Of a DNA stretch of 32,000 nt, positions 14,706-30,807 are shown piece by piece. Position 1 is the first letter of the stretch, and each line of letters starts with the position of its first letter. The stretch is taken from positions 23,735 through 55,734 of the forward strand of contig CAZTTY010000009.1 in NCBI GenBank assembly GCA_964616815.1, in the 5' to 3' direction. The notes beneath the pieces are model-generated. The model was not told the DNA's origin and searched no databases. It saw nothing but the letters and a program-made list of their open reading frames with translations. Made by a program: the position numbers and the translations under genes. This DNA comes from an uncultured Gemmatimonadaceae bacterium. GTDB taxonomy: Bacteria; Gemmatimonadota; Gemmatimonadetes; Gemmatimonadales; Gemmatimonadaceae.

Positions 14706-15938
14706 TCACGCACCCCAGTCCGCGGTGCACGCGTAGAACCCGAGCGTCTCGGAGCTTCTCGCGACGTACTCCCGATTCGTGCCATCTCCGTTCATGATGT
14801 AGATGTCTCCGTCGGCACAGTAGACGAGCCGCCCTCCGCCGGGCGACCAGGAGGCGCTGTGGCTGTAGGCAACGTCGTCCGTCAGCTGCTCGCGGTCGCT
14901 TCCATCGCTGGCGATCGTGAAGATGTTGGAGCTTCCTGCCGGAACACCGATCGTGATGGCGAGCCTCTCTCCGGAGAGCGACCAGGCAGGGAAGCCGGTG
15001 AAACTGGCCTCGCTGGTGATCGGCTCCCGGTTGCTGCCATCGCTGTCGATGATCGCGATGTTGTAATGGCCACCGTAGGGAGGCGGGTCGCTCATGAAGG
15101 CGATGCGCGCCCCATCGCGCGACCACGCTGCCCAGTAGTCGGCGGCGGTGTCGGGTGTCACGAGATGGAGGTTTCCTCCATCGCCCGCATCGATGGTGTA
15201 GATCTCCATCCTGCCGTCGCGATTGCTGTTGAAGGCGATCTTCTCTCCGTCCGGCGACCAGGCGGGATACTCGTCGTCCCCCGGGTCGTTGGTGAGGCGC
15301 TGGAGTCCGGAGCCGTCGGCGTTCATCACGTAGATCTCGGTGTTGCCCTCCCGACTGCTCATGAACGCGATCTTCGACCCGTCCGGTGACCAGCGTGGGA
15401 CCATGTTGTCGAAGCCGCTTGTGACTGTGAGTTGGTGCAGCCCGCTCCCATCGGGGGCGATCGTGTACAACTCGAAGTTGGCGTCGCCGTCGGCTCCCTG
15501 GCGGTTGCTGTAGAAGAGGATCTTCCCGTCGGTGCACGCGACGGTGAAGGGGACGGTGGCCGTGTCACCCGCGGTCACGTTCACGGCTCGGGCGTGAGAG
15601 CCATCGATGGTACAGTGCTGCGCCACGCCGCCGAGCTCCACGTCGTGACTACCAGCGGTGAGGTTCGACAGGGTGAGCGAGCCATCGGCGCCGATCGTCT
15701 GCGCGGTGCCGCCGTCGATCGCCACTGTGTATCCGTCCCGGTCGGGATCCACGCCGGCCGTGGATGTCGTCACGGTCATCGCGCCGGTGGTCGGCGGGGG
15801 ATTCGGGCCGGTGCCGCCACTGTCTCCGCTCCCTCTGCCGCACGCTCCCAGGAGCATGGCCAGGAGGAGGACACCGGGGACTATCTCGTTCCGACGGTGC
15901 GCGCCGGTAGCGCGCCGTGCTCTACGGACATTGTACAT
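14706..15938 (-). CDS. TolB-like beta-propeller (PD40 repeat) lipoprotein
   Basis: Track ORF trimmed to ATG 15938, giving MYNVRRARR...VPGVLLLAMLLGACG with a lipobox. Repeated PD40 units include PRWSPDGSKIAFMSSREGNTEIYVMNADGSGLQRLT and PAWSPDGEKIAFNSNRDGRMEIYTI. Confidence 0.85.
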   Translation of the reverse strand: MYNVRRARRATGAHRRNEIVPGVLLLAMLLGACGRGSGDSGGTGPNPPPTTGAMTVTTSTAGVDPDRDGYTVAIDGGTAQTIGADGSLTLSNLTAGSHDVELGGVAQHCTIDGSHARAVNVTAGDTATVPFTVACTDGKILFYSNRQGADGDANFELYTIAPDGSGLHQLTVTSGFDNMVPRWSPDGSKIAFMSSREGNTEIYVMNADGSGLQRLTNDPGDDEYPAWSPDGEKIAFNSNRDGRMEIYTIDAGDGGNLHLVTPDTAADYWAAWSRDGARIAFMSDPPPYGGHYNIAIIDSDGSNREPITSEASFTGFPAWSLSGERLAITIGVPAGSSNIFTIASDGSDREQLTDDVAYSHSASWSPGGGRLVYCADGDIYIMNGDGTNREYVARSSETLGFYACTADWGA

Positions 15939-17510: not shown

Positions 17511-17892
17511 CTCGCCCGGCAACAGGCGAACAGACATCCGTGGGTAAGTCGCGGTCATCATCGCCCTGACCGCGCGCCGATGTACGGCACGCGTTCTCGA
17601 GCAGCTCCCTCATACCGTCGACGGACCCCGGCAACGTTCGAGGCGGATGGACGACGCCGTGTGACCGAAGTCCACATCCAAGCCACCCACGCCGCCCCGC
17701 ATTTGAAGCAGACCGGCCGCCGAGCGAGATTCCCCCGGTGATGGCCGCGCGTGGCAGCGGGATCGGCCGCCGGGATCATCCGATCCCGGCGCCACGACCC
17801 GCGACCCGCCGGCGCCGGACGCCGGCGAACGCTGTACCGGCCGAACGAATCGGCCCGTCAATCGATAACGGCCCACGTGGAGAGAGCCGCAG

Positions 17893-18490: not shown

Positions 18491-19417
18491 CTACTCTACA
18501 CTCGCGATCCGCCGCACGTACTCCACCACATACGCGGCGATGTCGGTCGCCGAGTGCTGATCCAGTCCCATCTCCATCGCTCGCTGCTCCATGGGCTCGA
18601 CCCAGTGCGGGTGTACAATGATTTCTGGAGGCCAGCGCTGTTGCTGGCGAACGTCGAAAGTCTCCTCGCAGACCGACCGTAGTGCGGCCGATGGCGGTGC
18701 CAGAGTGCTGAGCATCACTATATCCAGGAGATCGCGGAACCGGTCATTGATCCGTTCCTCAGCCGGCGTCTCGGTGACGGCGTGAAGCTTCTGTGCGACC
18801 TGCTTGATGATCGGGATGCATGGCAGAAGCGCGGGTCCTTCGATCCCGAACGGACGAAGCGAGAAGGCTCGGACCATCTCGGGTGCCAGCGGCGTTCCCT
18901 CGTAGGCAGATACCTCGAGCTTCACATTGGCGAACGGCCGCTCGACGATGCGACCGAATCGCTCTTCCTGGTAAGAGACGTGGATCCTGAACCTGCGCAT
19001 ATGGCGAGCGTCGGGGGTCTCCAGCTCCATGCGGAGTGCGAAGTTGTGGCGTGGCACTTCGAGCGCGGTACGGACGGCCGTCTCGATATCGTCCAGTGCG
19101 CCATGGTACGTTGCGTCGAGGTCCCTGGTCGCTCGTGGACGGATTGTAGTCTGCCCGGCCGTCGTACGTTGAGCATCGGCGCGCTCCAGTTGCCGCATGC
19201 GCATCTCGATCGCAGCACCACCTTTCAACTCGAACAGCGATTTACCGTCCGGCGCATAGCTCGCCAGCGCGTCTGCCACGATGGTGAATCCGACCCAGCG
19301 TTGCACCCAGTCGGTCTCGATCCCGAGCTCTTTCCCACACCGTGTGATCGCTTGCGCGAGAGCGCTCGCCGTCTGGGGCGGCAGGTTCTTCAGCAGGGGG
19401 CCGAGTTCGTCGAGCAT
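18491..19417 (-). CDS. abiEii: AbiEii/AbiGii-family nucleotidyltransferase toxin (type IV TA)
   Basis: 308 aa. Contains LFELKGGAAIEMR...RATRDLDATY, which matches the KGG(T)A...R-x-T-x-D-L-D nucleotidyltransferase core of DUF1814/AbiEii proteins. It lies directly downstream of an AbiEi-like gene. Confidence 0.8.
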   Translation of the reverse strand: MLDELGPLLKNLPPQTASALAQAITRCGKELGIETDWVQRWVGFTIVADALASYAPDGKSLFELKGGAAIEMRMRQLERADAQRTTAGQTTIRPRATRDLDATYHGALDDIETAVRTALEVPRHNFALRMELETPDARHMRRFRIHVSYQEERFGRIVERPFANVKLEVSAYEGTPLAPEMVRAFSLRPFGIEGPALLPCIPIIKQVAQKLHAVTETPAEERINDRFRDLLDIVMLSTLAPPSAALRSVCEETFDVRQQQRWPPEIIVHPHWVEPMEQRAMEMGLDQHSATDIAAYVVEYVRRIASVE

Positions 19418-19453: not shown

Positions 19454-20032
19454 CTAAAGCTTCCCTGCCAAGTTGAGCTCTCCCGTCAGCGCATCGGCAT
19501 CGGTGGGCGAAAGCCACCCACCTCGGCGTGCGTCGTCGATCGCCTGGTGGATGAGCGCCGGCCCCATGTTAGCCATCGCACAGTCACGGATCGCCCTGTC
19601 GGCGGTCGTGACCGGGAGGCCCTCGACTGACCCTACGTCCGCAGGTGCGAGGTCGGCAAAGTGCAATACGACCCCTGGCGGCGGGTTGCGCCGGCGAGGG
19701 CGGTGCTTCCTCGGCACCGTAACGTGGATCCTGGTCGGGTTCACGTCTGACAGCTCCATCAGGTCGAGTGCGGTCTCGTGGGACAGCACGCCGGTCGTCC
19801 CCTGTGGCCACATCACGGCGGTGGCATAGGAAGTCCACCGGGTGGTTGGCGCGCCCGGGTCGTGGTACAATCCATAAGCGATCCGAACGAGACGCCCGCG
19901 CCGAGCCATCATGACCAGCGCGGTCGTCTTCACGCCAGCGGCCCGAGCTTGCTCGGCGGTAAATACTCCGTGTTGCTCGAGCGCCAGAGCATGCACGGTG
20001 GCATAGGCGTCGTAAGTGCCGTGATCTGGCAT
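19454..20032 (-). CDS. abiEi: AbiEi-family antitoxin / transcriptional autoregulator
   Basis: Track ORF 19454..20158 trimmed to ATG 20032, because the upstream 42 codons are just the translated palindromes. N-terminal wHTH-like HGVFTAEQARAAGVKTTALVMMARRGRLVRIAYGLYH. C-terminal domain VLSHETALDLMELSDVNPTRIHVTVP...LPVTTADRAIRDC. Confidence 0.8.
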   Translation of the reverse strand: MPDHGTYDAYATVHALALEQHGVFTAEQARAAGVKTTALVMMARRGRLVRIAYGLYHDPGAPTTRWTSYATAVMWPQGTTGVLSHETALDLMELSDVNPTRIHVTVPRKHRPRRRNPPPGVVLHFADLAPADVGSVEGLPVTTADRAIRDCAMANMGPALIHQAIDDARRGGWLSPTDADALTGELNLAGKL

Positions 20033-20044
20033 TGCGGGGTCCGT

Positions 20045-20077
20045 GGACAAGATATAATGACTTGTTATATCTTGTCC
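20045..20077. promoter_or_regulatory. 33-bp perfect palindrome (proximal to abiEi): likely AbiEi operator
   Basis: GGACAAGATATAA-TGACTTG-TTATATCTTGTCC, with 13-bp perfect arms. It lies 12 nt upstream of the abiEi ATG and contains TATAAT on the + strand (20053-20058). Confidence 0.6.
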
Positions 20078-20097
20078 GTTACCATCGCTCCTGTCAA
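20069..20097 (-). promoter_or_regulatory. Candidate abiE promoter: perfect -35 TTGACA (20097-20092), 17 nt, weak -10 CAAGAT (20074-20069)
   Basis: Read on the minus strand between the two palindromes. The putative -10 lies inside the palindrome at 20045-20077, which fits autorepression. The -10 assignment is weak. Confidence 0.4.
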
Positions 20098-20107
20098 GAG
20101 TTGATGG

Positions 20108-20140
20108 GGACAAGATATAACGACTTGTTATATCTTGTCC
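20108..20140. promoter_or_regulatory. Second copy of the 33-bp palindrome (proximal to jetA): likely AbiEi operator
   Basis: GGACAAGATATAA-CGACTTG-TTATATCTTGTCC. It matches the first copy at 32 of 33 nt. The centres are 63 bp apart. Each copy is followed by ACC(C)ATCGCTC. It ends 81 nt upstream of the jetA ATG. Confidence 0.6.
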
Positions 20141-20221
20141 GGATGACCCATCGCTCACGCATCGTCAACCCAACGCTTGCAGTGCCCAGATGAACTCCCC
20201 CGCCGCCCACCTGACCGATCC

Positions 20222-21706
20222 ATGGACTACCACACGCTCGATCACCTCCGACGCGACCACCCCGCCTGGCGGCTCCTCGCCGCGCAGCACGCGCCGCTGA
20301 TCGTGAGTGTCCTCCACCGCCACTTCGTCGATCCCAACGTCCGCACCATGCCGCGCAATGAGCTCGTCGAGCACGTGGAGGATGACCTCTTCCACCTCCG
20401 CGAAGAGCTCGGCGACGATGTGTTCCCCCGCTCCGCCGCGAACTATCTGGACGAGTGGGCCTCAGACGATAAAGGATGGCTCCGCAAGTACTACCCGGCC
20501 GGCACCGACGAACCGCACTACGACATCACCCCCGCCACCGAGAAGGTCATCGGCTGGCTCGCCGGGCTCCAGGAACGCCACTTCATCGGCACGGAGTCGC
20601 GATTGCTCACGGTCTTCGAGCTCCTCCGGCAGATGCTGGAAGGCACCGAGCTCGACCCCGATGCGCGCATCGCCGAGCTCGAAAGGCGCCGCGCGGAGAT
20701 CGACGCCGAGATCGGGAAGATCCGCGGCGGCCAGCTCGACATCATGGACGCCACGCAGGTAAAGGAACGCTTTCTCCAGATGTCGGCGACCGCGCGCGGG
20801 CTGTTGGCGGACTTCCGCGACGTGGAGCAGAACTTCCGCGAGCTCGACCGGAGCGTCCGCGAGCGGATCGCCGTGTGGGATGAAAGTCGCGGTGCGCTCC
20901 TGGATTCGATCTTCGACGAGCGCGATGCGATCGAAAACTCGGATCAGGGTAAGAGCTTCAACGCCTTCTGGGACTTTCTCATGTCGCCGGAGCGGCAGGA
21001 GGAGCTCACTTCGCTGTTGCGCTCCGTGATGGATCTCGATGCGGTGCGCTCCCTCTCGCCACCGCCCGATCCGCGCCTGTCACGGATCCATTACGACTGG
21101 CTGGAAGCGGGCGAGGTCGCGCAGCGCACTGTCGCCCGGCTCTCGCGGCAGTTGCGCCGCTACCTCGACGACCAGGCGTGGCTGGAGAACCGCCGCATCA
21201 TGCAACTGATCCGCTCCGTCGAGCAGCACGCGCTCGCCATTCGACACGATTTCCCGGCCGGCCCCGCCATGGAGATCGACCAGGCCGCGCCGGACATCGA
21301 CCTCCCAATGGAACGCCCGCTCTTCTCCCCATCGTTCAAGCCGGTGCTCGGTGGCGACGTGGTGCTCGCGGGTGACGAAGACATCCCCGCCGATGCGCTT
21401 TTCGATCAGATTTACGTGGACCGCGAGAAGCTCCGCTCCAACGTGCGACGCATGCTCCAGAACCGCCGCCAGATCTCGCTGATGGATGTGATAGACGAGT
21501 GCCCGCTCGAGCATGGGCTCGCGGAGCTCGTGGGCTACCTGAGCATCGCCGCCGACGATGGCAACGCGTCGATCGACGAAGAACGGAGAGAGTCCGTCGC
21601 ATGGACGGACGACGCGGGCGTCAGCCGGCGAGCAGAGCTCCCGCGCGTGCTGTTCGTGCGATCCGCGGAAGGTCTGGTGGATCCCGCCGACGCAATGACT
21701 TCGTGA
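20222..21706 (+). CDS. jetA: Wadjet JetA (DUF3375, MksF/kleisin-like)
   Basis: Track ORF trimmed to the first ATG at 20222. Contains MDYHTLDHLRRDHPAWRLLAAQHAPLIVSVLHRHF...YLDEWASDDKGWLRKYYPAGTDEPHYDITPATEKVIGWL...GTESRLLTVFELLRQM, then a coiled-coil segment and QGKSFNAFWDFLMSPERQEEL. This is characteristic of DUF3375. Confidence 0.9.
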   Translation: MDYHTLDHLRRDHPAWRLLAAQHAPLIVSVLHRHFVDPNVRTMPRNELVEHVEDDLFHLREELGDDVFPRSAANYLDEWASDDKGWLRKYYPAGTDEPHYDITPATEKVIGWLAGLQERHFIGTESRLLTVFELLRQMLEGTELDPDARIAELERRRAEIDAEIGKIRGGQLDIMDATQVKERFLQMSATARGLLADFRDVEQNFRELDRSVRERIAVWDESRGALLDSIFDERDAIENSDQGKSFNAFWDFLMSPERQEELTSLLRSVMDLDAVRSLSPPPDPRLSRIHYDWLEAGEVAQRTVARLSRQLRRYLDDQAWLENRRIMQLIRSVEQHALAIRHDFPAGPAMEIDQAAPDIDLPMERPLFSPSFKPVLGGDVVLAGDEDIPADALFDQIYVDREKLRSNVRRMLQNRRQISLMDVIDECPLEHGLAELVGYLSIAADDGNASIDEERRESVAWTDDAGVSRRAELPRVLFVRSAEGLVDPADAMTS

Positions 21707-22296
21707 CGGCCCCCGACCAGCTCCCCCGCGTCCTCATCGCCCTCATGAAGGGAGTGGTCTACCGGGAGAACGATGCCGCTCTCTGGCAGTCGCTCGAGTC
21801 GCTGCAGGCGCGTGCCCACGACTACGTGTCGCTGCTCGGCCTGGAACTCATCCTTGATGAGAGCGAGGGTTACGCGTACCTGCGGCAGCGTATGGTCGAT
21901 GTCGGTTCCGAAGATGGTGAAGACGTCGATCTTCCCCGGCTCGTCGCGCGTCGCCAGCTCGGCTTTCCGGTCAGTCTACTGCTGGCGCTTCTGCGCAAAC
22001 GCCTCGCCGAGCTGGATGCGAAGGGCGGTGAGACGCGGCTCATCGTGAGCCGCGACGACATGGTCGACATGCTGCGCCTCTTCGCCCCGGATGCATCGAA
22101 CGAAGCGCGCCTCACCGACCGCATCGATGCACACATCGCGAAGGTGGTGGAGCTCGGTTTCCTGCGCCTCCTGGCTGGCCACGCCGATCTGTACGAGGTG
22201 CGCCGTATACTGAAGGCGTTCGTGGATGCGCAATGGCTGCACGATTTCGACGAGCGCCTGTCGGCGTACCGCGAGCACGTCGATGCGCGCGCCTGA
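21703..22296 (+). CDS. jetB: Wadjet JetB (DUF4194, MksE-like)
   Basis: The GTG at 21703 overlaps the jetA stop (GTGA). Contains [57 protein letters not shown]...[25 protein letters not shown]...[16 protein letters not shown]. Confidence 0.85.
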
Positions 22297-25200
22297 CGAT
22301 CGGGCGGCGGCGGGTTCCGCGGCAGCCTCGAACACGCCGCCAGCGACGGACATCGTGCACGGACGGCGCAATCCTCGTCCCGGCTTCCGGCTCGACCGAC
22401 TCGAGGTCTACAACTGGGGCACGCTCGATGGATCGGTGTGGGGGCTCGACTGCAGCGGTGAGAACGCGCTCCTCACGGGCGACATCGGTTCCGGGAAGTC
22501 CACGCTGGTGGACGCGATCAGCACACTGCTGATCGCGCCCGGGAAGATCACCTACAACCGCGCGGCCGGCGCGGAGGCGCGCGAGCGCACGCTCCGCACC
22601 TACGTTCTGGGCCACTACAAGTCCGAACGCGGCGGCGGTTCCGCGGCGAAGCCGATCGCGCTGCGGGATCACAACAAGTATTCGGTTATACTGGGACGTT
22701 TCATCAACGAGCAGCTCGCTCAGCAGGTTACGCTCGTCGAGCTGTTCTGGTGGAAGGATACACAGGGCCAACCCGCGCGCTTCTACGTGGTCGCCGACGT
22801 TCCGCTCTCGATCGCTGAGCACTTTTCGAACTTCGGCAAGCACATCGACCGCCTGCGCAAACGGCTCCGCGAGATGGATGGAGTCGAGCTCCACGACAGC
22901 TTCCCGCCGTACGGCGCGGCGTATCGCCGCCGAATGGGGATCGAGAGCGAACAGGCGATGGACCTGTTCTACCAGACCGTGTCGATGAAGGCGGTGGGAA
23001 ATCTCACCGAGTTCGTGCGCGCGCACATGCTCGAGCCTTTCGACGTGCAGGAGCGGATCCAGGCCCTCATCGGCCACTTCGATGATCTCACGCGCGCGCA
23101 CGAGGCGGTGCAGAAGGCGAAGGCGCAGATCGAGCTCCTCGCCCCGCTGGTGGAGAATTGCGAGCGGCACTCGGCTCTGGTGGCGAGTGTGGAGTCGCTG
23201 CGAGGGTCGCGGGACGCGCTGACGCCTTGGTTCGCGATGCTCGAGGGCGGGCTGCTCGATGAGCGGATCGCGAAGCTGCAGGCCGATGCCCTGCGCATGG
23301 AGGAGCGCCTTGCAACGCTCGCCACGAAGATCAACGATGCGAGCGCGAAGTGCGCGTCGCTCGAGGCAGCCGTCAAACTGGAAGGCGGCGGACGCATAGC
23401 CGAGATCCAGCGCGAGATCGCCATGCACGTGGCTGAGCGGGATGCTCGCACCAGCAAGGCGGAGAGCTACCGTGCCCTCGTGCGTGCCGCGGAGCTTCCC
23501 ACGACATTGGACGCGGAGACGTTCATCGCCAACAGGAATGCGATTGCGGAGGAGAGTGAAGCGACGGAGATGGCGCAGGCCTCGGTACAGAACGCTCTCA
23601 CCGAGGCGAGCGTGGAGATGCGCGATCTGGAGGAGCGACACAGGGCGCTCGCGAGCGAACTGGAGTCGCTCCGGCGGCGCCGCTCGAACATCCCCACTCA
23701 CATGCTGGGGATACGCGAGCGGCTGTGCGCCGCATTGGGCCTCGAAGAGAGTGTGGTCCCGTTTGCGGGCGAGCTGATTCAGGTGCGGGAAGACGCTCGC
23801 GACTGGGAGGGCGCGATCGAGCGTCTGCTCCATGGCTTTGGGCTCTCGCTTCTCGTGAGCGATGCCGATTACGCGGCCGTGGCGGAGTGGGTGGACCGCA
23901 ACGACCTGAAGGGCAGGCTGGTCTACTATCGGACGGCCGGCGGGGCTCAGCGCGGGAGATCTCGAGTCGATCCACGCTCGGTGGGCGCCCAACTCCAGCT
24001 CGAACCGTCATCGCCATTCTATCAATGGCTCGACGATACGATCAGTCGGCGCTTCGATCATCTCTGCTGTATGTCTTCCGAAGAGCTGAGGCGCGCTTCG
24101 CGCGGCATCACGCGTGCGGGGCAGATCAAGGAAGGACCCGAACGCCACGAGAAGGACGACCGCCACGCGATCGGCGACCGCACGCGCTGGGTGCTGGGGT
24201 GGTCCAACGAGAGAAAGATCGCCGCGCTCGAGAAGCAGGCGGCGGATGTCGCCCTGCGGGGCAACGCCGCGCTCGGCCGGCTCACCGGGCTGAAGGATGA
24301 GCAGCGCGCCGTGGGTGAGCGGAAGCGCACGCTCGACCAGCTCTCGATGTTCGTCAGCTTCCGCGAGGTAGACTGGAAGAGCGTGGCGGTGGAGATCGAT
24401 GAACTCGAGCGGGAGCTGCGCGAGCTCGAGGCGGCGTCCGATCGGCTCCACGCGCTTCGCGAGCAACTGCGCGCGGCGGAGGATGTGCTGAGCCGGCTGA
24501 AAGACGAGCGCGAGACTCGCATCGATAAGCGAGGTGCGTTGCGCGGCACGCTGGAAGCCGCTCGGGGAGAACGCGCCAGGTGCGCCGATACGCTCGCCAC
24601 CACCTCCGAAGAAGAGCGCGCCGAGCGATTTCCCAGACTGGAGGCGCTGCGGGCGGACGCCATCGGTACGGCGGCGATCACCCTGGAATCGTGCGATGCG
24701 CGCGAGCGCGAGATGCGCTCGTGGATCCAGAACCGGATCGATACAGACGAGCGCCGGCGCGGACATCTCGGCGAGCGAATCGTGAGTGAAATGCAGAAGT
24801 ACATCGCCGCCTACCCGCTCGAGACGCGCGAAGTGGATGCCACCGTCGACTCGGCGGGTGAATTCGCGGCGATGCTCGAACGGCTGCGCTCGGACGATCT
24901 GCCGCGGTTCGAGGTGAGGTTCAAGGAGCTTCTGAACCAGAACACCATCCGGGAGATCGCCAACTTCCAGTCGCAACTCGCGCGCGAGAGCAGGACCATC
25001 GCCGAACGGATCGAGCGCATCAACCAGTCGCTGAACGACATCGACTACAATCCCGGCCGTTTCATATTGCTCGAAACGGAAGTGAGCACCGACCGGGAGG
25101 TACGCGACTTCCAGCAGGAGCTGCGGTCATGCACGGAGGGAGCGCTGACCGGTTCGGAAGACGACGCGTACTCGGAAACGAAGTTCGAGCAGGTGAAGCG

Positions 25201-25756
25201 GATCATCGACCGCTTTCGCGGCCGCGAGGGGAGCGCGGAGGTCGACAAGCGCTGGACGCGCACCGTCACCGACGTGCGCAACTGGTACGTCTTTTCCGCC
25301 TCGGAGCGCTGGCGTGAGGATGGGAGCGAATACGAGCACTACACCGACTCCGGTGGGAAATCCGGCGGGCAGAAGGAGAAGCTCGCCTACACCGTGCTCG
25401 CGGCGAGTCTGGCGTACCAGTTCGGACTCGACGCCGTGGCGGGGAAGGCGCGCACGTTCAGATTCGTGGTGATCGACGAAGCGTTCGGCAGGGGGTCGGA
25501 CGAGTCGGCGCGCTACGGTCTGGAGCTCTTCCGGAAGCTGGAGCTGCAGCTTCTGGTGGTGACGCCGCTGCAGAAGATTCACATCATCGAGCCGTACGTC
25601 GCGGCGGTGGGTTTCGTGTACAACCCCGACGGGAACGCCTCGATGTTGCGGAATCTCACGATCGAGGAATACAGGAAGGAGCAGGCAGCCGCGAGCGCCG
25701 ATGGCCGAAGGAATGGTGGCCGGTCGGCCGGAGGCCGAGGGGATGGGGCGGAGTAG
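22283..25756 (+). CDS. jetC: Wadjet JetC (MksB/SMC-like ATPase)
   Basis: The ATG at 22283 overlaps jetB by 14 nt. Contains [16 protein letters not shown] and Walker [10 protein letters not shown], long coiled-coil arms, the signature-like [23 protein letters not shown], and Walker [18 protein letters not shown]. Confidence 0.9.
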
Positions 25757-26953
25757 ATGAACGACTGGGTCGGACCGGCAGAGCTGACGTCGCAGCTCGA
25801 GAGACATTGGGCCCGGGGCCGAATCCTGAGGGCCATGGTGGACGGAGCATCGATATTTCCACTGCGCCTGCGGCTTCGCGGGCCGACGCGCTCCGACCTG
25901 GCCGATCGGTTCGACGAAGTGCGAAAGTGGATCGGCGAGCTGGAGGGGAGCAGCAAGAGCGCGCGCGGCTACGGGTACGATCTGGAATGGACGGAGAGCC
26001 GGCACAGGCAGTTGGGACGCAATCGGTGGCCATCCGGCGCGATCGTGTCGACCGAGGACGATGCGCTGCGTCTCATCGGGAAGCGGCGCGATGCGGCGCG
26101 CTTCAGGGAGATCATCGCGGCCACGACGGCGAGCTTCCCGGAACTGCGTGAGTGGCTGTCGCGCTATCCGTTGATCGCGCTGGAGTGCGCCGATGACTGG
26201 AGCCGGATACTCGCCGTGCTCACCTGGTTCAGGGAGCATCCGCGTAGCGGCCTCTATCTGCGGCAGCTCGACATCCCCGGCGTGGACACGAAGTTCATCG
26301 AGGACCGTCGCGGTCTCATCGCTACGCTGCTCGATCGGATACTTCCCCCGGAGTCCATCGATGCGACGGCCGTGGGGGCTCGCGGATTCGAGGTGCGCTA
26401 CGGCCTGCGATGCAAACCGGCGTTGGTGCGCTTTCGAATACTGGACCGCCGACTGCGTCTGCACGGCCTGTCCGACATCACCGTACCTGTGGAGGAGCTC
26501 GCGGAGCTCCGGTTGGGTGCGCGGCGAGCGTTCGTCACGGAAAACGAGATCAATGGACTGGCGTTTCCGGAGCTACCCGGCAGCATCGTCATCTTCGGCA
26601 TGGGCTACAGGGCGGAACTGCTCGCGGGTGTCGGGTGGCTCAACGATATCGACATCCATTACTGGGGCGACATCGACACGCACGGGTTCGGGATACTGGA
26701 CCGGCTGCGAGGTGGGATCCCACACGCTCGATCGTTCCTGATGGATCGAGCTACGCTACTCGCGCATCGCGAGCTCTGGGTGACCGAGGAGAGCGGCGAG
26801 ACGAGGGAGTTGAACCGTCTCACCAACGCGGAGCGAGTGTTGTACGACGAGCTACGGGGCGATCGATACGGTCGGAAAGTCCGGTTGGAGCAGGAACGGA
26901 TCTGGTTCGCCTGGGTGAAGCGGGCATTGCAGGAACTCGGCGTAGTGGAATGA
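25757..26953 (+). CDS. jetD: Wadjet JetD (DUF3322 plus DUF2220/Toprim-like nuclease subunit)
   Basis: The ATG immediately follows the jetC TAG. Contains ...ILRAMVDGASIFPLRLRLRGPTRSDLADRFDEVRKWI... and the C-terminal Toprim-like FVTENEINGLAFPE...IVIFGMGY...IHYWGDIDTHGFGILDRLR. Confidence 0.9.
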   Translation: MNDWVGPAELTSQLERHWARGRILRAMVDGASIFPLRLRLRGPTRSDLADRFDEVRKWIGELEGSSKSARGYGYDLEWTESRHRQLGRNRWPSGAIVSTEDDALRLIGKRRDAARFREIIAATTASFPELREWLSRYPLIALECADDWSRILAVLTWFREHPRSGLYLRQLDIPGVDTKFIEDRRGLIATLLDRILPPESIDATAVGARGFEVRYGLRCKPALVRFRILDRRLRLHGLSDITVPVEELAELRLGARRAFVTENEINGLAFPELPGSIVIFGMGYRAELLAGVGWLNDIDIHYWGDIDTHGFGILDRLRGGIPHARSFLMDRATLLAHRELWVTEESGETRELNRLTNAERVLYDELRGDRYGRKVRLEQERIWFAWVKRALQELGVVE

Positions 26954-27059
26954 ACGCTCCGTGAGCGCATGGCCGCCCGCCCCTACGGTTCGCGGTGAGG
27001 CTGGACGCGGTGGAGCGACGGGGTCAGGTCTTTAGCTCGACTTTGGCCATTTCAGGCGG

Positions 27060-27287
27060 TCAGAACGTGTAGCCCCGATCGATCCAGTAGTGCCAATCGG
27101 CGACAGCCATCCGCGTGTCGGGGCCGGTTTCGCGATCTGACAGTTGGGCGAGCGGAACCGCCAGCGAGCGGTCGCACCAATGAATCTGGACGAACATCTC
27201 GCACTCGCATTCGACTTCTGGCGCCATGGCGATTACGGTGATCACCTCACCCACTTCAGTGGTGAGATGGCATGTGCTGCGCGTCAT
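27060..27287 (-). CDS. Small conserved protein, probably N-terminally truncated (family often annotated 'calcium-binding protein')
   Basis: Contains ...GEVITVIAMAPEVECECEMFVQIHWCDRSLAVPLAQLSDRETGPDTRMAVADWHYWIDRGYTF. The EMFV-I-W-x-R-x-LAVPL-QL...DWHYW-x-RGY-F C-terminus is one I recall from longer homologues. The family name is from memory and unverified. The 5' end abuts the transposase remnant. Confidence 0.45.
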   Translation of the reverse strand: MTRSTCHLTTEVGEVITVIAMAPEVECECEMFVQIHWCDRSLAVPLAQLSDRETGPDTRMAVADWHYWIDRGYTF

Positions 27288-27300
27288 GGGTCACCGAGAC

Positions 27301-27546
27301 GACCGCCACTTCGTCAACTTCTACCGCATCTTGAACCGCGCTCGCTGGGATGTCCGGCGAGCAAGCCGTACCCTCCTCGGCCTCTTCTCTCTCGTCACTC
27401 TTCTGGCTTGCCGTCTTCCGACGTCCGAGCGCCGCGGTGCAAGAAGGGCAGCCTGGTACGAAAAGACAGTGCCGACCTTGAGCGACACACTTGCAGTCGT
27501 GCGACGGCGATCGTGGGCCTCGAAGAATTGCCCTCTTCCGGATTGA
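27301..27546 (+). pseudogene. Internally deleted DDE transposase remnant (IS701/IS4-superfamily-like)
   Basis: The frame reads ...RHFVNFYRILNRARWDVRRASRTLLGLFSLVTLLACRL...RRAAWYEKTVPTLSDTLAVVRRRSWA. The (F)xRVLNRARW motif is typical of the N-terminus of these transposases. LLGLFSLVTLLA...AWY-K-x-PT-SD-LA-VRR-LW is typical of the extreme C-terminus. The catalytic core of several hundred aa is missing. Confidence 0.55.
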
Positions 27547-27641
27547 CCAAGGAGACAGCATGTTCGGAGTGCGTAACACAAGCCTACCCACCTTCTTTAC
27601 GTCGCGTTAGACACTCACATAGTTCGTGTCGAGCCTCACTC

Positions 27642-28373
27642 ATGCAGCCAGACTTCTCGGAGCGGACGTTCGAGTTTTGCTACAACGCGGAGTTTGTACA
27701 CCGCCTTGGAGGGTTTCTCGCTGCGTACCCGCACCTCCCCAGCCTCCGGGCGGAGCGCGCGCTGGGTTATGATGTGCAGTTCCGTCTGCGAGCAGGGCGC
27801 TATCGGCGCTCACTATTCCTGCAACACAAGATCGCGCATTTCGGCGAGAACAGGCAGTGGAACAATACCGATTTCTACGACGCTCACGGCGGCCCGTATT
27901 ATCGGTTTCCGCTCGAAGATGATCAGCACAACGTACTGCTGCGAATCCGAGGACATCGGGGGGATGCGTTCTACTGCGCACCTCGTTTTCATCGGCGCAC
28001 CGACCTGAACCGGTACTTCCGGCAGCGCACGATCGTTCCAAATAGTTCCTGGTTCTGGCCGCAGAAGCTAGGCGTGCTCGCGGGCGGGCGACACCACATC
28101 AGCGTAGATCCGGCGGGGCGTCAAGCGTTCTATTACTCTGAACCTAAGCCGCTGGATGTGAGGTATTCGGGGGGTGATCGCCTTCCGGACCTCGAAGAGC
28201 ATGAGTTGAACGAGCAGTTCTTGCGATCGTTCACGGAGGAGCTGAGGGAGGAGTACGCGTATGTCAGCGGAAGGCGTCAGCTACCAGACGCCCTCGGCCG
28301 GGCTCGCGATATTGAGATTATTCAATACGTGCTATCTCAGGTTCTACGCACCAGTTGGATTATTCTCGAGTGA
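27642..28373 (+). CDS. Orphan hypothetical protein with possible PD-(D/E)xK-like nuclease motif
   Basis: Track ORF 27144..28373 trimmed to ATG 27642; the upstream part is read-through of the IS scar. 243 aa. Contains MQPDFSERTFEFCYNAEF...RAERALGYDVQFRLRAGRYRRSLFLQHKIAHF...YYRFPLEDDQHNVLL...DAFYCAPRFH. The spacing E38...D44...Q61-H-K63 resembles E/D...(E/Q)xK. The region is visibly more A+T-rich than its flanks. Confidence 0.6.
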   Translation: MQPDFSERTFEFCYNAEFVHRLGGFLAAYPHLPSLRAERALGYDVQFRLRAGRYRRSLFLQHKIAHFGENRQWNNTDFYDAHGGPYYRFPLEDDQHNVLLRIRGHRGDAFYCAPRFHRRTDLNRYFRQRTIVPNSSWFWPQKLGVLAGGRHHISVDPAGRQAFYYSEPKPLDVRYSGGDRLPDLEEHELNEQFLRSFTEELREEYAYVSGRRQLPDALGRARDIEIIQYVLSQVLRTSWIILE

Positions 28374-28674
28374 TGTGCACGAGGCGCCCGCGAGAGATAC
28401 CGTCAAGGCTCGTGGAGCATGCTGATCTGATTCATGGCGGGCCTGCCGGGTCGGAGAATGTGCCGTGATACCCGGGAGCGCACGGCTGCAGGCTGATTCT
28501 TCCGAGTCTTCGACTCGCTAGCCGCACTGTACTCCTGGCAATGACATTCACGGACATGGTATTGTTGCCGTGTGCCGATGAATTGGCGCCCATCCAGATG
28601 GTCACCATGCGCTTCGGTCGATGCGTGCACCTTACATCTCGACGAACATCGAGCCACACCAGCCACTTCCATCC

Positions 28675-29091
28675 ATGAAGCGAAGCCGCGTCCTGCTACA
28701 TGCTCTGTCCCTGATTCTGCTCGCCTGCAATGGCAGCACCGGGCCGCTCGATGTGGCTTCGACGTGCGAGCGACGAGCCGCGACGGGCGTCTACGGCTGT
28801 ACGATGGTAACCGGACTGATAAAGAACGACTCGGGCGGCGGGCAGCTGGGAGCACTCGTCACGGCGGTTCCCCTGGGCGAGCTCGTACCTGGCGCCGTAT
28901 TCCTGAGCGACACGGTCTCCACCGATGGCGCGGGGGCGTACTGGCTCTACGTACTCGTCAAGTCGCCGCCGGCGACTGACACGCTGGTGGATCCGGTAGA
29001 TGTCAGGTTGAGGGCCACTCTGGCCCCACCCGCGGGCTCTCCGGCTGGGACACCGGTCGTGTCGGCCGAGATCTTTGCCCCTCTACATTAA
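28675..29091 (+). CDS. Small hypothetical lipoprotein
   Basis: Track ORF trimmed to ATG 28675. Contains MKRSRVLLHALSLILLACNGS with a lipobox. The 3' end overlaps the convergent GMC oxidoreductase by 9 nt. Confidence 0.5.
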   Translation: MKRSRVLLHALSLILLACNGSTGPLDVASTCERRAATGVYGCTMVTGLIKNDSGGGQLGALVTAVPLGELVPGAVFLSDTVSTDGAGAYWLYVLVKSPPATDTLVDPVDVRLRATLAPPAGSPAGTPVVSAEIFAPLH

Positions 29092-30807
29092 AGACCCGAC
29101 CCCGTCGTTCACCTCCACCATCCTCGCCGCGAACCGCTCTGCCAGCGCCGCTATCGTGAGGCTCGGGTTCGCCCCCACCGGGCCCGGCATCACCGACCCG
29201 TCCGCCACGTACAGGCCCGGCACTCCGTACACTTCCCCCCATTCGTCGGTCATCCCCTCGTTCGCATCCCGCCCCATCGGACAGCCGCCGAGCGGATGCA
29301 CAGTGATCACCCGCTTGAAGAACCACATCGGGTTGTCCACGAACTTCCCGTCCCACGTGTCCACGATGTCGCGCATTGCGCCGCGCATCCGCTCGAAGTA
29401 CTGCGACGAGTTGCGGGTGCTCCAGTCGATGTCCAGCCACCCCTCCGAGAGCTGCATCTCGCCGTCGGGGGTGTCGCGCCCCATGCCGAGGAGCGGGAGC
29501 GAGTCCGACGACAGCTCGCATTCGCCCAGCAGGCGCGACATGTCGTCGCCGATCGAGCTGTCCGATGCGCCACCCATACGCGCTTTGATGCGCTGCCACG
29601 CGAAGTAGATGGCGCGCCGCGCGAAGCCCACTGTGTCGGTTGCCTCGGCGAGCCAGCCCATGAAGGCGGGGTAGCCCGCATCCTCCAGATACATCCCCCG
29701 CGCTCCGCGCAGCGATGGGTCGTCCAGCGCATCGGGATAGCGGATGGCGCTGGTGATCACCGGCCCGTTGGATGGCTCCAGCCGCCGGCCGCGTTCCACC
29801 CCGTCGCTGTTGTCGCGACAGCGGATGGCGAAGGAGAGCAGGTCGCCGTTGCCGCAGAAGCGCGTCCCCAGCAGCGGGTGCACTCCGCCGAACGCTTCGC
29901 GGTTGCGAAGCAGCAGGTACGTGGACCCGAAGGTGCCCGCCGCGATTATCAGTTTGCGGGTCGCGATGGTGGTGCGGGGGAGCTTGCCCACGTCGAGCGG
30001 CGTACCTTCGCGCTCGAGGTCGTGGCGCACGTAGCTCACGGTGAAGCCGCCCCCGCTCGCGCGCGGCGCTATCGCCTTCACTTCGCAGAGCGTGCGCAGC
30101 TCCGCGCCCGCGCGCTGCGCCGCCGAGAGATAGGTGTAGTCGAGTGTGTTCTTGCTCCCGGTGTTGCACCCGGCGTCGCACTCGCCGCAGAGTGTGCAGG
30201 TGAGCCGCGTGCGCCCGTGCAGGTTGCGGTGGGGCTCGCGGATCGGCTCGCCGGGCACCGGGGTCTCGCCTTCGTTCCCGAAGGTCACTGTGAGCGGCGG
30301 GAGCATCCAGTCGAGTCCGCGCGCCTTCGCCGCGTCGCGCATGGCGCGGGTCTTGGGGGTCTCGGAGTACGGCTGCTCGTGGAAGGGGAAGCGCTGCACG
30401 GCCAGCATCCGCTCCGCTTCATCATAGTGCGGATCCAGATCGGCGCGCGTCACGGGCCATGTCTCGTAGCCGCCGCGGTCGCGGTCGTGCACGAACCAGC
30501 GCTCGTCCTTGCGCAGCGCCACGTTCGCGTAGATGAGCGAGCCGCCGCCCAGGCCGCTCGACACCAGCCCCTCGAGCCCGCGGAACGACCAGACGTCGAA
30601 CATCCCGTAGGTGCCCTCCGAAGGGCTCCAGAAGTTGCGCGCGACTCCGCGCGGGCTGCGCGGGAAGGAGCCCGGCGGGTACGCCTTCCCGCGTTCGAGC
30701 AGACACACGCGCCACCCGGCCTGCGCCAACCGGCACGCCATCACGGAGCCGCCGAAGCCGGACCCCACTATCACGGCGTCGAAGTGTTCCCGGGTCTCTC
30801 CCTGCAT
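29083..30807 (-). CDS. GMC-family FAD-dependent oxidoreductase (cholesterol-oxidase-like)
   Basis: N-terminal Rossmann motif FDAVIVGSGFGGSVMACRLAQAGWRVCLLERG. Also GLGGGSLIYANV and C-terminal HPLGGCPMG...GLYVADGSVMPGPVGANPSLTIAALAER. Confidence 0.9.
   Translation of the reverse strand: MQGETREHFDAVIVGSGFGGSVMACRLAQAGWRVCLLERGKAYPPGSFPRSPRGVARNFWSPSEGTYGMFDVWSFRGLEGLVSSGLGGGSLIYANVALRKDERWFVHDRDRGGYETWPVTRADLDPHYDEAERMLAVQRFPFHEQPYSETPKTRAMRDAAKARGLDWMLPPLTVTFGNEGETPVPGEPIREPHRNLHGRTRLTCTLCGECDAGCNTGSKNTLDYTYLSAAQRAGAELRTLCEVKAIAPRASGGGFTVSYVRHDLEREGTPLDVGKLPRTTIATRKLIIAAGTFGSTYLLLRNREAFGGVHPLLGTRFCGNGDLLSFAIRCRDNSDGVERGRRLEPSNGPVITSAIRYPDALDDPSLRGARGMYLEDAGYPAFMGWLAEATDTVGFARRAIYFAWQRIKARMGGASDSSIGDDMSRLLGECELSSDSLPLLGMGRDTPDGEMQLSEGWLDIDWSTRNSSQYFERMRGAMRDIVDTWDGKFVDNPMWFFKRVITVHPLGGCPMGRDANEGMTDEWGEVYGVPGLYVADGSVMPGPVGANPSLTIAALAERFAARMVEVNDGVGSLM

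Follow-up and report, generated by a model that had tools for sequence, protein, structure and literature searches.

An open reading frame (ORF) of 243 amino acids (aa), located beside a Wadjet system in the 32,000-nucleotide (nt) stretch of DNA analysed here (hereafter, the window), belongs to a widespread, unannotated protein family, the close subfamily of which is a one-gene integron cassette. This cassette nature is the main addition to the original prediction, in which the ORF was described as an orphan with a PD-(D/E)xK-like motif and as a candidate single-gene defence or nuclease. Tentatively, and with somewhat less than even confidence, we read the window copy as a stranded one-gene integron cassette beside Wadjet, the product of which is most likely a solo metal-dependent nuclease acting in single-gene defence; nuclease chemistry, substrate and defence role are what we infer for the protein. 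The features of the region are listed below by window coordinates and strand.

18491-19417, minus strand: AbiEii (Pfam).
19454-20158, minus strand: AbiEi (Pfam).
20177-26953, plus strand: JetA, JetB, JetC and JetD of Wadjet (Pfam).
26954-29112, no strand: strain-specific 2.1-kb block holding the ORF, between Wadjet and the GMC oxidoreductase (break in homology with the related genomes G010 and G022).
27013-27034, minus strand: left edge of the block, half-copy of a palindromic repeat with dispersed copies (repeat comparison).
27060-27287, minus strand: CcbP-like fragment (Pfam).
27226-27546, plus strand: transposase remnant upstream of the ORF (residues 61-101 share 56% identity with annotated transposases, E = 5e-4; no Pfam match).
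27606-27612, plus strand: GTTAGAC, relic of the cassette 5' boundary; an R' core site of integrons (GTTRRRY), 30 nt upstream of the ATG.
27642-28373, plus strand: the 243-aa ORF (P0001), aligned over its full length to 123 relatives, with every family-invariant residue kept.
29080-29110, plus strand: right edge of the block, a second half-copy of that palindromic repeat (repeat comparison).
29083-30807, minus strand: GMC oxidoreductase (Pfam).

The reading frame runs intact from ATG 27642 to TGA 28373 on the plus strand, and an in-frame extension upstream to TTG 27144 is also present; we take ATG 27642 as the true start because the N termini of homologues (MxPGFSERTFEF) coincide with that position. 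The open frame and the homologue N termini together bear out the uninterrupted 243-aa ORF that had been called from this ATG. Its placement in the A+T-richest part of the window likewise held, with the G+C minimum of the window at 27001-29000 (0.60-0.61, versus 0.63-0.71 elsewhere); the ORF itself has a G+C content of 0.58 and a GC3 of 0.67, and its eight neighbouring genes have GC3 values of 0.70-0.90. As first noted, no Shine-Dalgarno sequence precedes the ORF, and such a sequence is also missing from most of the well-supported genes of the window (for example, jetA, abiEii and the TANGO2-like gene). The promoter proposed upstream, TTTACG-N16-CATAGT, is present at 27596-27623 but agrees with the consensus at only 8 of 12 positions, which is below the scan threshold. 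That the ORF is spurious, as the lack of visible translation signals might suggest, is vanishingly improbable, and we rejected this reading on the basis of hundreds of homologues with common, conserved motifs and coincident ends. The nearest relative of the protein is only 47% identical to it, and an identical protein is recorded on 19 contigs.

A word-indexed search recovered 123 relatives (38-47% identity over the full length, nearly all 242-261 aa), and an exhaustive search recovered 921 cluster representatives at E <= 1e-3, of which 272 remain at E <= 1e-10. With a length of ~245 aa and about 900 clusters, the family spans Proteobacteria, Nitrospira, Acidobacteriota, Bacillaceae, Gemmatimonadota and one haloarchaeal plasmid. 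The target protein was not found in 40 relative genomes (24 of the same genus), and the family profile gave one weak match only across 400 genomes of the phylum; matches were rare among plasmid records (5 of 72,556) and absent from 50,697 phage records. The target gene is accessory and horizontally acquired. No relative found in the family searches carries a Pfam domain, and the names given to relatives are either 'hypothetical protein' or a propagated and evidently wrong 'adenylosuccinate lyase'. The protein, which the original prediction could place in no family, indeed matched no known family in profile and library searches (Pfam, NCBIfam, PADLOC, PHROGs and PDB sequences); models of known anti-phage systems (PADLOC-DB 2.0, E <= 1) did not match it, PDB sequences queried with the single sequence and with two family profiles returned no match, and Pfam searched at E <= 10 with 48 diverse family members returned a single match, to RE_HindIII (E = 0.003). 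These family searches, along with the lack of a shared neighbour gene (described below), uphold the view of the ORF as a genuine, uncharacterised single-gene unit.

The cassette nature of the family emerged from the sequences that border its genes. Upstream, 12 of 29 loci, one of them the window, carry GTTRRRY at a distance of 8-39 nt from the start codon (25-39 nt in 11 of these loci), in the form (G)CGTTAGGC or GTTAGAC; downstream, RYYYAAC directly follows the stop codon in homologues. The two motifs are core sites of integron attC sites, GTTRRRY being R' and RYYYAAC being R''. An attC covariance model (R1), built from 12 sites and run on the window and 30 loci, placed attC sites on both sides of the family gene in four loci (L031, L005, L020 and L007) and just 3' of it in four more (L010, L019, L034 and L017), with a borderline site in a Thiomonas locus (L001/L003). 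The attC totals under this model reached 26 in L031 and 17 in L005. The latter locus, from Xanthomonas arboricola, comprises ilvD, a divergent integrase and then a same-strand array, and the ancestral integron locus of Xanthomonas is ilvD-intI (bioRxiv 10.1101/2025.06.18.660453). The two attC sites that flank the gene in L031 lie 764 nt apart, with nothing but the 738-nt ORF between them; since this interval holds the family ORF alone, the protein must work without a co-transferred partner. No neighbour gene was shared among 24 independent loci (all-against-all BLAST, with upstream same-strand ORFs compared separately), and no conserved tandem repeats like those of type III toxin-antitoxin systems were found in the flanks of the loci. 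A toxin-antitoxin or other two-gene system was therefore rejected on three counts (no common adjacent partner, no conserved flank repeats and the ORF alone between attC sites), and the family gene has no obligate partner.

The window copy retains one end of such a cassette. GTTAGAC (27606-27612) falls within CGCGTTAGAC (window 27603-27612), which matches the 3' end of two attC sites of the same genome in all 10 nt, with no similarity between the window and those sites beyond it (BLAST). With default filters and a limit of E <= 1, model R1 detected no attC in the window (best E 1.6 with filters off), and neither a crude pattern finder nor BLAST with the genome's own attC sites detected any. The best explanation is that the window copy is a stranded cassette, with the 5' boundary kept, the attC lost and the gene outside the genome's own integron; the missing promoter and the 'orphan' state of the ORF follow from the gene being an integron cassette. 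The genome encodes an IntI on contig C57 (G000:C57:5923-6864; TIGR02249, 436 bits versus a cut-off of 265), and the window lies on contig C9, not adjacent to this integron.

The integron on C57 (G000:C57:5923-11765, locus L095) is a sedentary integron in a Gemmatimonadota genome, in which IntI is followed by at least seven same-strand attC sites of 126 nt, 400-800 nt apart, with integrase and cassettes in the same orientation.

There is precedent for cassettes of this kind in defence. Integron cassettes formerly of unassigned function confer phage resistance, and some homologues of these phage-resistance cassettes occur in small defence islands without attC, in genomes with an integron elsewhere (bioRxiv 10.1101/2024.07.02.601719). 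Both those cassettes and the genes of the target family consist of one promoterless ORF, with attC right after the stop codon in target homologues; target homologues also lie in long same-strand arrays beside intI and carry GTTRRRY at the upstream spacing given above. The window copy differs from the phage-resistance cassettes in being without attC and outside an integron, in having no PADLOC match and in coming from a family for which no phage-resistance phenotype is known.

The stranded gene sits in DNA that is particular to this strain. In the closest relative (G010), jetABCD is 83-86% identical (window 20186-26917 versus G010:C449 and G010:C129), and homology runs no further than the jetD end (26917); for both G010 and G022 it does not resume until 29113, at the 3' end of the conserved GMC oxidoreductase gene. 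Beyond the break, the G010 and G022 sequences differ from each other and from the window, and no empty site was found in these relatives. The different DNA that follows jetD in G010 indicates that Wadjet predates the 2.1-kb block, the contents of which are the CcbP-like fragment, the transposase remnant, the target gene and a small lipoprotein-like ORF. Pfam matches confirm Wadjet and AbiE as the neighbours named in the original prediction, and two further claims about the surroundings stood in part. Of the 'IS scar' placed before the ORF, transposase-like residues can be recognised (61-101 of ORF 27226-27546), although the match is weak (E and Pfam result as listed above); the right-hand island repeat corresponds to an 11-mer that does occur twice, but homology with relatives breaks at 26917 and 29113 instead.

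This setting bears on whether the window copy still serves its host. The family could be real and the window copy a decaying remnant, silent cargo from recombination that is of no use to the host, an alternative we regard as improbable: the copy is without attC, promoter or Shine-Dalgarno sequence, is flanked by the transposase remnant and dispersed-repeat half-copies and shares only 47% identity with its nearest relative, yet its frame is intact and full length with every family-invariant residue kept, the identical protein recurs on 19 contigs, and read-through from the same-strand jetABCD operon is possible.

Two other ORFs of the block were characterised in passing. Of the CcbP calcium-binding family, the 75-aa ORF at 27060-27287 (minus strand) covers the C-terminal 60 positions alone (E = 3e-14); it is a truncated gene abutting the transposase remnant. 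The ORF at 28621-29091 (plus strand) has a lipobox-like LLAC signal when read from ATG 28675 and no Pfam match; because it is not conserved beside the GMC oxidoreductase gene in G010 or G022, we count it as part of the variable block and not of the core flank.

Within the protein, E38, D44, Q61 and K63, the four residues singled out in the original prediction, proved to be part of the invariant core of the family (99-100% in an alignment of 252 sequences), and, judged from that alignment, their conservation is far beyond chance. The codons of the residues that matter most to the argument are as follows.

27660-27662, plus strand: E7 (97% conserved), start of the first helix (alignment; mean-field direct coupling analysis (mfDCA), 8, 11, 14 and 15 with 60-64).
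27753-27773, plus strand: E38 to D44 (E38 99%, G42 94% and D44 99%; alignment; AlphaFold pLDDT 55-66).
27822-27830, plus strand: Q61-H62-K63 (Q and K without exception in 252 sequences), forming the 'QxK' in the proposed active site.
27924-27926, plus strand: Q95 (invariant; alignment).
28092-28094, plus strand: H151 (99% conserved; alignment).

Across the 252 sequences, Q61, K63 and Q95 are 100% conserved, E38, D44, P33, P114 and H151 are 99% conserved, and P30 (98%), E7 (97%), Y111 (97%), F116 (96%) and G42 (94%) follow closely. The window protein retains every residue in this ranking. The aromatic blocks that had looked conserved in the single sequence are so across the family (around Y86, Q95-H96, Y111, P114 and F116), and S166 is also conserved. 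Conservation peaks over residues 1-120 and declines toward the C terminus, with a minimum near residues 181-220. The residues that define a PD-(D/E)xK motif, which calls for an acid on helix 1, a D where strand 2 begins and (D/E/Q)xK on strand 3, are thus found at near-invariance, with E7 on helix 1 at 97%, D44 at 99% and both Q61 and K63 at 100%.

The fold of the protein was approached through structural models, residue periodicity and covariation. AlphaFold2 models were confident, whether built from 34 sequences (pLDDT 86.1, pTM 0.85) or from 149 (pLDDT 89.2, pTM 0.88; all five models 87-89), and show alternating strand-helix units over residues 56-138, with conserved residues near strand ends. 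Foldseek searches of both models against PDB, and one search against BFVD, returned no neighbour (best E 0.12, TM about 0.1), and no restriction enzyme in the PDB library searched was matched. The sole poorly modelled part is residues 31-50 (pLDDT 55-66), which carry E38 and D44; AlphaFold renders residues 35-50, including the D44 segment, as a low-confidence helix (pLDDT 55-66) and not as a strand. Contrary to this modelled helix, columns 42-51 alternate between hydrophobic and polar (moment 1.82 at 170 degrees versus 0.80 at 100 degrees), a turn at 50-53 has a gap or indel in 30% of family sequences, the segment after the turn is the hydrophobic strand S-L-F-L-Q-H-K-V, and residues 56-63 also have strand-type periodicity, all of which argues from the alignment that residues 42-63 may resemble a beta hairpin carrying D ... 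QxK. Couplings from mfDCA, which are noisy at an effective number of 208, link positions 8, 11, 14 and 15 with 60-64, 45 with 62, 50 with 60, and 42 and 59 with 96, and are consistent with one polar cluster of E7, D44, Q61, K63 and Q95. Two further mfDCA couplings (57 with 239, 24 with 240) put the C-terminal strand beside the QxK strand, which is not the canonical PD-(D/E)xK strand order.

Profile comparisons with nuclease families gave suggestive placements at non-significant scores. Aligned by hhalign to Mrr_cat (an alignment built from ten genomes), D44 and QxK fall on the catalytic D and QxK/ExK (probability 0.16%, P 0.37, not significant); aligned to the HindIII family (36 proteins), 52 columns are collinear (probability 0.3%, P 0.2, not significant), with D44 paired with a conserved D, QxK with DxK, PYYRFP with PIYQLP and Q95 with a conserved Q. 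No significant profile similarity to a PD-(D/E)xK member family was found with Pfam, hhalign or PDB-sequence profiles. Membership of the PD-(D/E)xK fold, as the original prediction had proposed, was thus tested and not established: library and Foldseek searches gave no match, with no nuclease-fold neighbour of the AlphaFold models in PDB or BFVD, the hhalign scores were not significant and the D44 segment was modelled as helical. The nuclease reading is nevertheless the best available idea.

Three groups of known enzymes offer points of comparison. Within the PD-(D/E)xK enzymes, a PD-QXK subgroup has been described (PMC11347163), and its Mrr-like, modification-dependent restriction endonucleases (Mrr, MspJI and the BisI family; PMC11347163) share with the target family a solitary state without a methyltransferase, a conserved acidic residue on the first helix and a D followed ~16 residues on by QxK within a hydrophobic strand. 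The target family differs from them in having no recognisable modification-reader domain, and its sequence, profile and fold show no significant likeness to theirs (no Pfam match, hhalign P 0.37, no Foldseek match). Likeness to the HindIII family (PF09518) consists of the Pfam match at E = 0.003 by 1 of the 48 diverse members and of the collinear motifs; set against it are the alignment P of 0.2, the lack of a methyltransferase partner for the target family and the lack of a Foldseek match. The target family also has about the size, and a D...QxK site, of two monomeric restriction enzymes. These are HinP1I and MspI, enzymes of about 250 aa with D-X18-QxK and D-X17-NxK sites; they serve as a lead only, as no sequence or fold match was obtained and HinP1I and MspI have cognate methyltransferases.

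The same evidence can be read as pointing to a cassette-borne enzyme of other chemistry, for instance a hydrolase or transferase with a nucleotide, small-molecule or protein substrate. Its alpha/beta fold would be new, and its D...QxK likeness to nucleases convergent or accidental. We consider this unlikely on balance, though it is the alternative to be taken most seriously. It would account for confident models without a structural neighbour in PDB or BFVD, for the strand-helix alternation over residues 56-138 with conserved residues near strand ends, for the additional conservation of H151 and S166 and for the failure of every profile method to detect a nuclease family; it sits less well with the E, D, QxK and Q set and its spacing (helix-E ... 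D-16-QxK), which are typical of restriction-endonuclease-like sites, and with the best local profile alignments falling exactly on the Mrr_cat and HindIII catalytic motifs. A further possibility, which we judge a long shot, is a new fold of stand-alone effector spread by integrons as a one-gene anti-phage or anti-plasmid cassette, with a D/QxK/Q/H site either independent of the classical restriction-endonuclease-like nucleases or extremely diverged from them.

Under the preferred nuclease reading, a functional-looking gene of an unannotated family, spread as a one-gene integron cassette, would have left its integron, lost its attC and settled in the strain-specific block beside Wadjet. Its protein would work alone as a metal-dependent phosphodiesterase (nuclease), with a proposed active site of E7 on the first helix, D44, Q61-x-K63, Q95 and H151, an arrangement that would correspond to the 'PD-QxK' of Mrr-like, modification-dependent restriction enzymes. 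Incoming, perhaps modified, DNA would be cut, making the gene a single-gene defence cassette with phages or plasmids as putative targets. Besides the fold and profile results, points that weigh against this reading are the absence of matches from the phage records and their rarity among plasmid records, the homologues that lie among housekeeping genes, and a window copy that is without attC, promoter or Shine-Dalgarno sequence.

The genomic neighbourhoods of homologues are mixed. Defence-type neighbours include Wadjet and AbiE in the window, OLD-like proteins in two loci (described below), a TIR-TPR protein, DUF3644 and PDC-S19 proteins, MmeI-like enzymes and, in one block, SNF2-PLD, SIR2 and HEPN-ApeA; mobile-element neighbours include transposases, an integrase, conjugation genes and a Tn7-like module; and several homologues lie among housekeeping genes (aminotransferase, ThyX, DNA ligase and flagellin). 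This listing of neighbours, which is not an enrichment figure, supports an accessory, mobile family that is often found in defence neighbourhoods, and a defence role is plausible from these neighbours. The company of some homologues would also suit a protein that is not catalytic but serves, for instance, as an immunity or anti-defence factor on integrons and plasmid leading regions: neighbouring cassettes in L031 encode SMI1_KNR4, DUF695 and RraB-like proteins, typical of immunity-gene arrays, and on two roseobacter plasmids a homologue lies near a relaxase and a DUF736 gene. We nonetheless rate such a protein quite improbable, slightly more so than a decaying remnant, as the invariant polar residues Q61, K63, Q95, H151, D44, E38 and E7 in 250 diverse sequences point to catalysis and no phage-borne copies were found among the 50,697 phage records.

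In two homologue loci, an OLD-like ATPase-Toprim gene lies immediately downstream on the same strand (L007:8845-10524, from the gammaproteobacterium Billgrantia, and L021:7915-9819, from Oceanobacillus). The hosts are very distant from each other, and no close relationship links the two OLD-like proteins.

Integron cassettes without an assigned function constitute a large pool of compact, self-sufficient adaptive genes, some of which have lately been shown to be phage defences. The present family is noteworthy within this pool for being widespread, unannotated in all libraries searched and marked by a sharply invariant polar set and a confident model without a structural neighbour. Should the protein be a solo nuclease, single-gene defences would gain a new member, and a new class of restriction-like enzyme might become available for tools; should it not be a nuclease, it is a candidate for a new enzyme fold. 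The window offers a specific example of a cassette that moved out of an integron into a defence island beside Wadjet, and bears on gene exchange between cassettes and defence islands.

Lastly, repeat comparison revealed a dispersed element at the edges of the block and probably others in the window. The half-copies at its edges belong to a dispersed palindromic element of ~90 nt, in which two 31-nt halves (CCTCTACATTAAAGACCCGACCCCGTCGTTC), inverted relative to each other, enclose a GC-rich hairpin. At least 20 copies occur in the genome of the window (on G000 contigs C67, C81, C151, C1, C154, C175, C142, C123, C13 and others) and more in relatives, about half of them within ~20-60 nt of contig ends, and the two half-copies in the window face each other across the 2.1-kb block. 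A 49-nt inverted repeat (26986-27034 and 29089-29136) was considered as a pair of terminal repeats or as a duplicated gene end and was rejected on both counts, as its inner 22-31 nt are these half-copies; its outer 27 nt (26986-27012 and 29110-29136) are 81% inverted-complementary, the latter being the 3' end of the GMC gene. Three non-coding segments of the window (17544-17667, 28491-28569 and 15372-15497; 79-128 nt) recur at 80-86% on G041:C170 and, occurring there without flanking-gene synteny, are probably further small dispersed elements.
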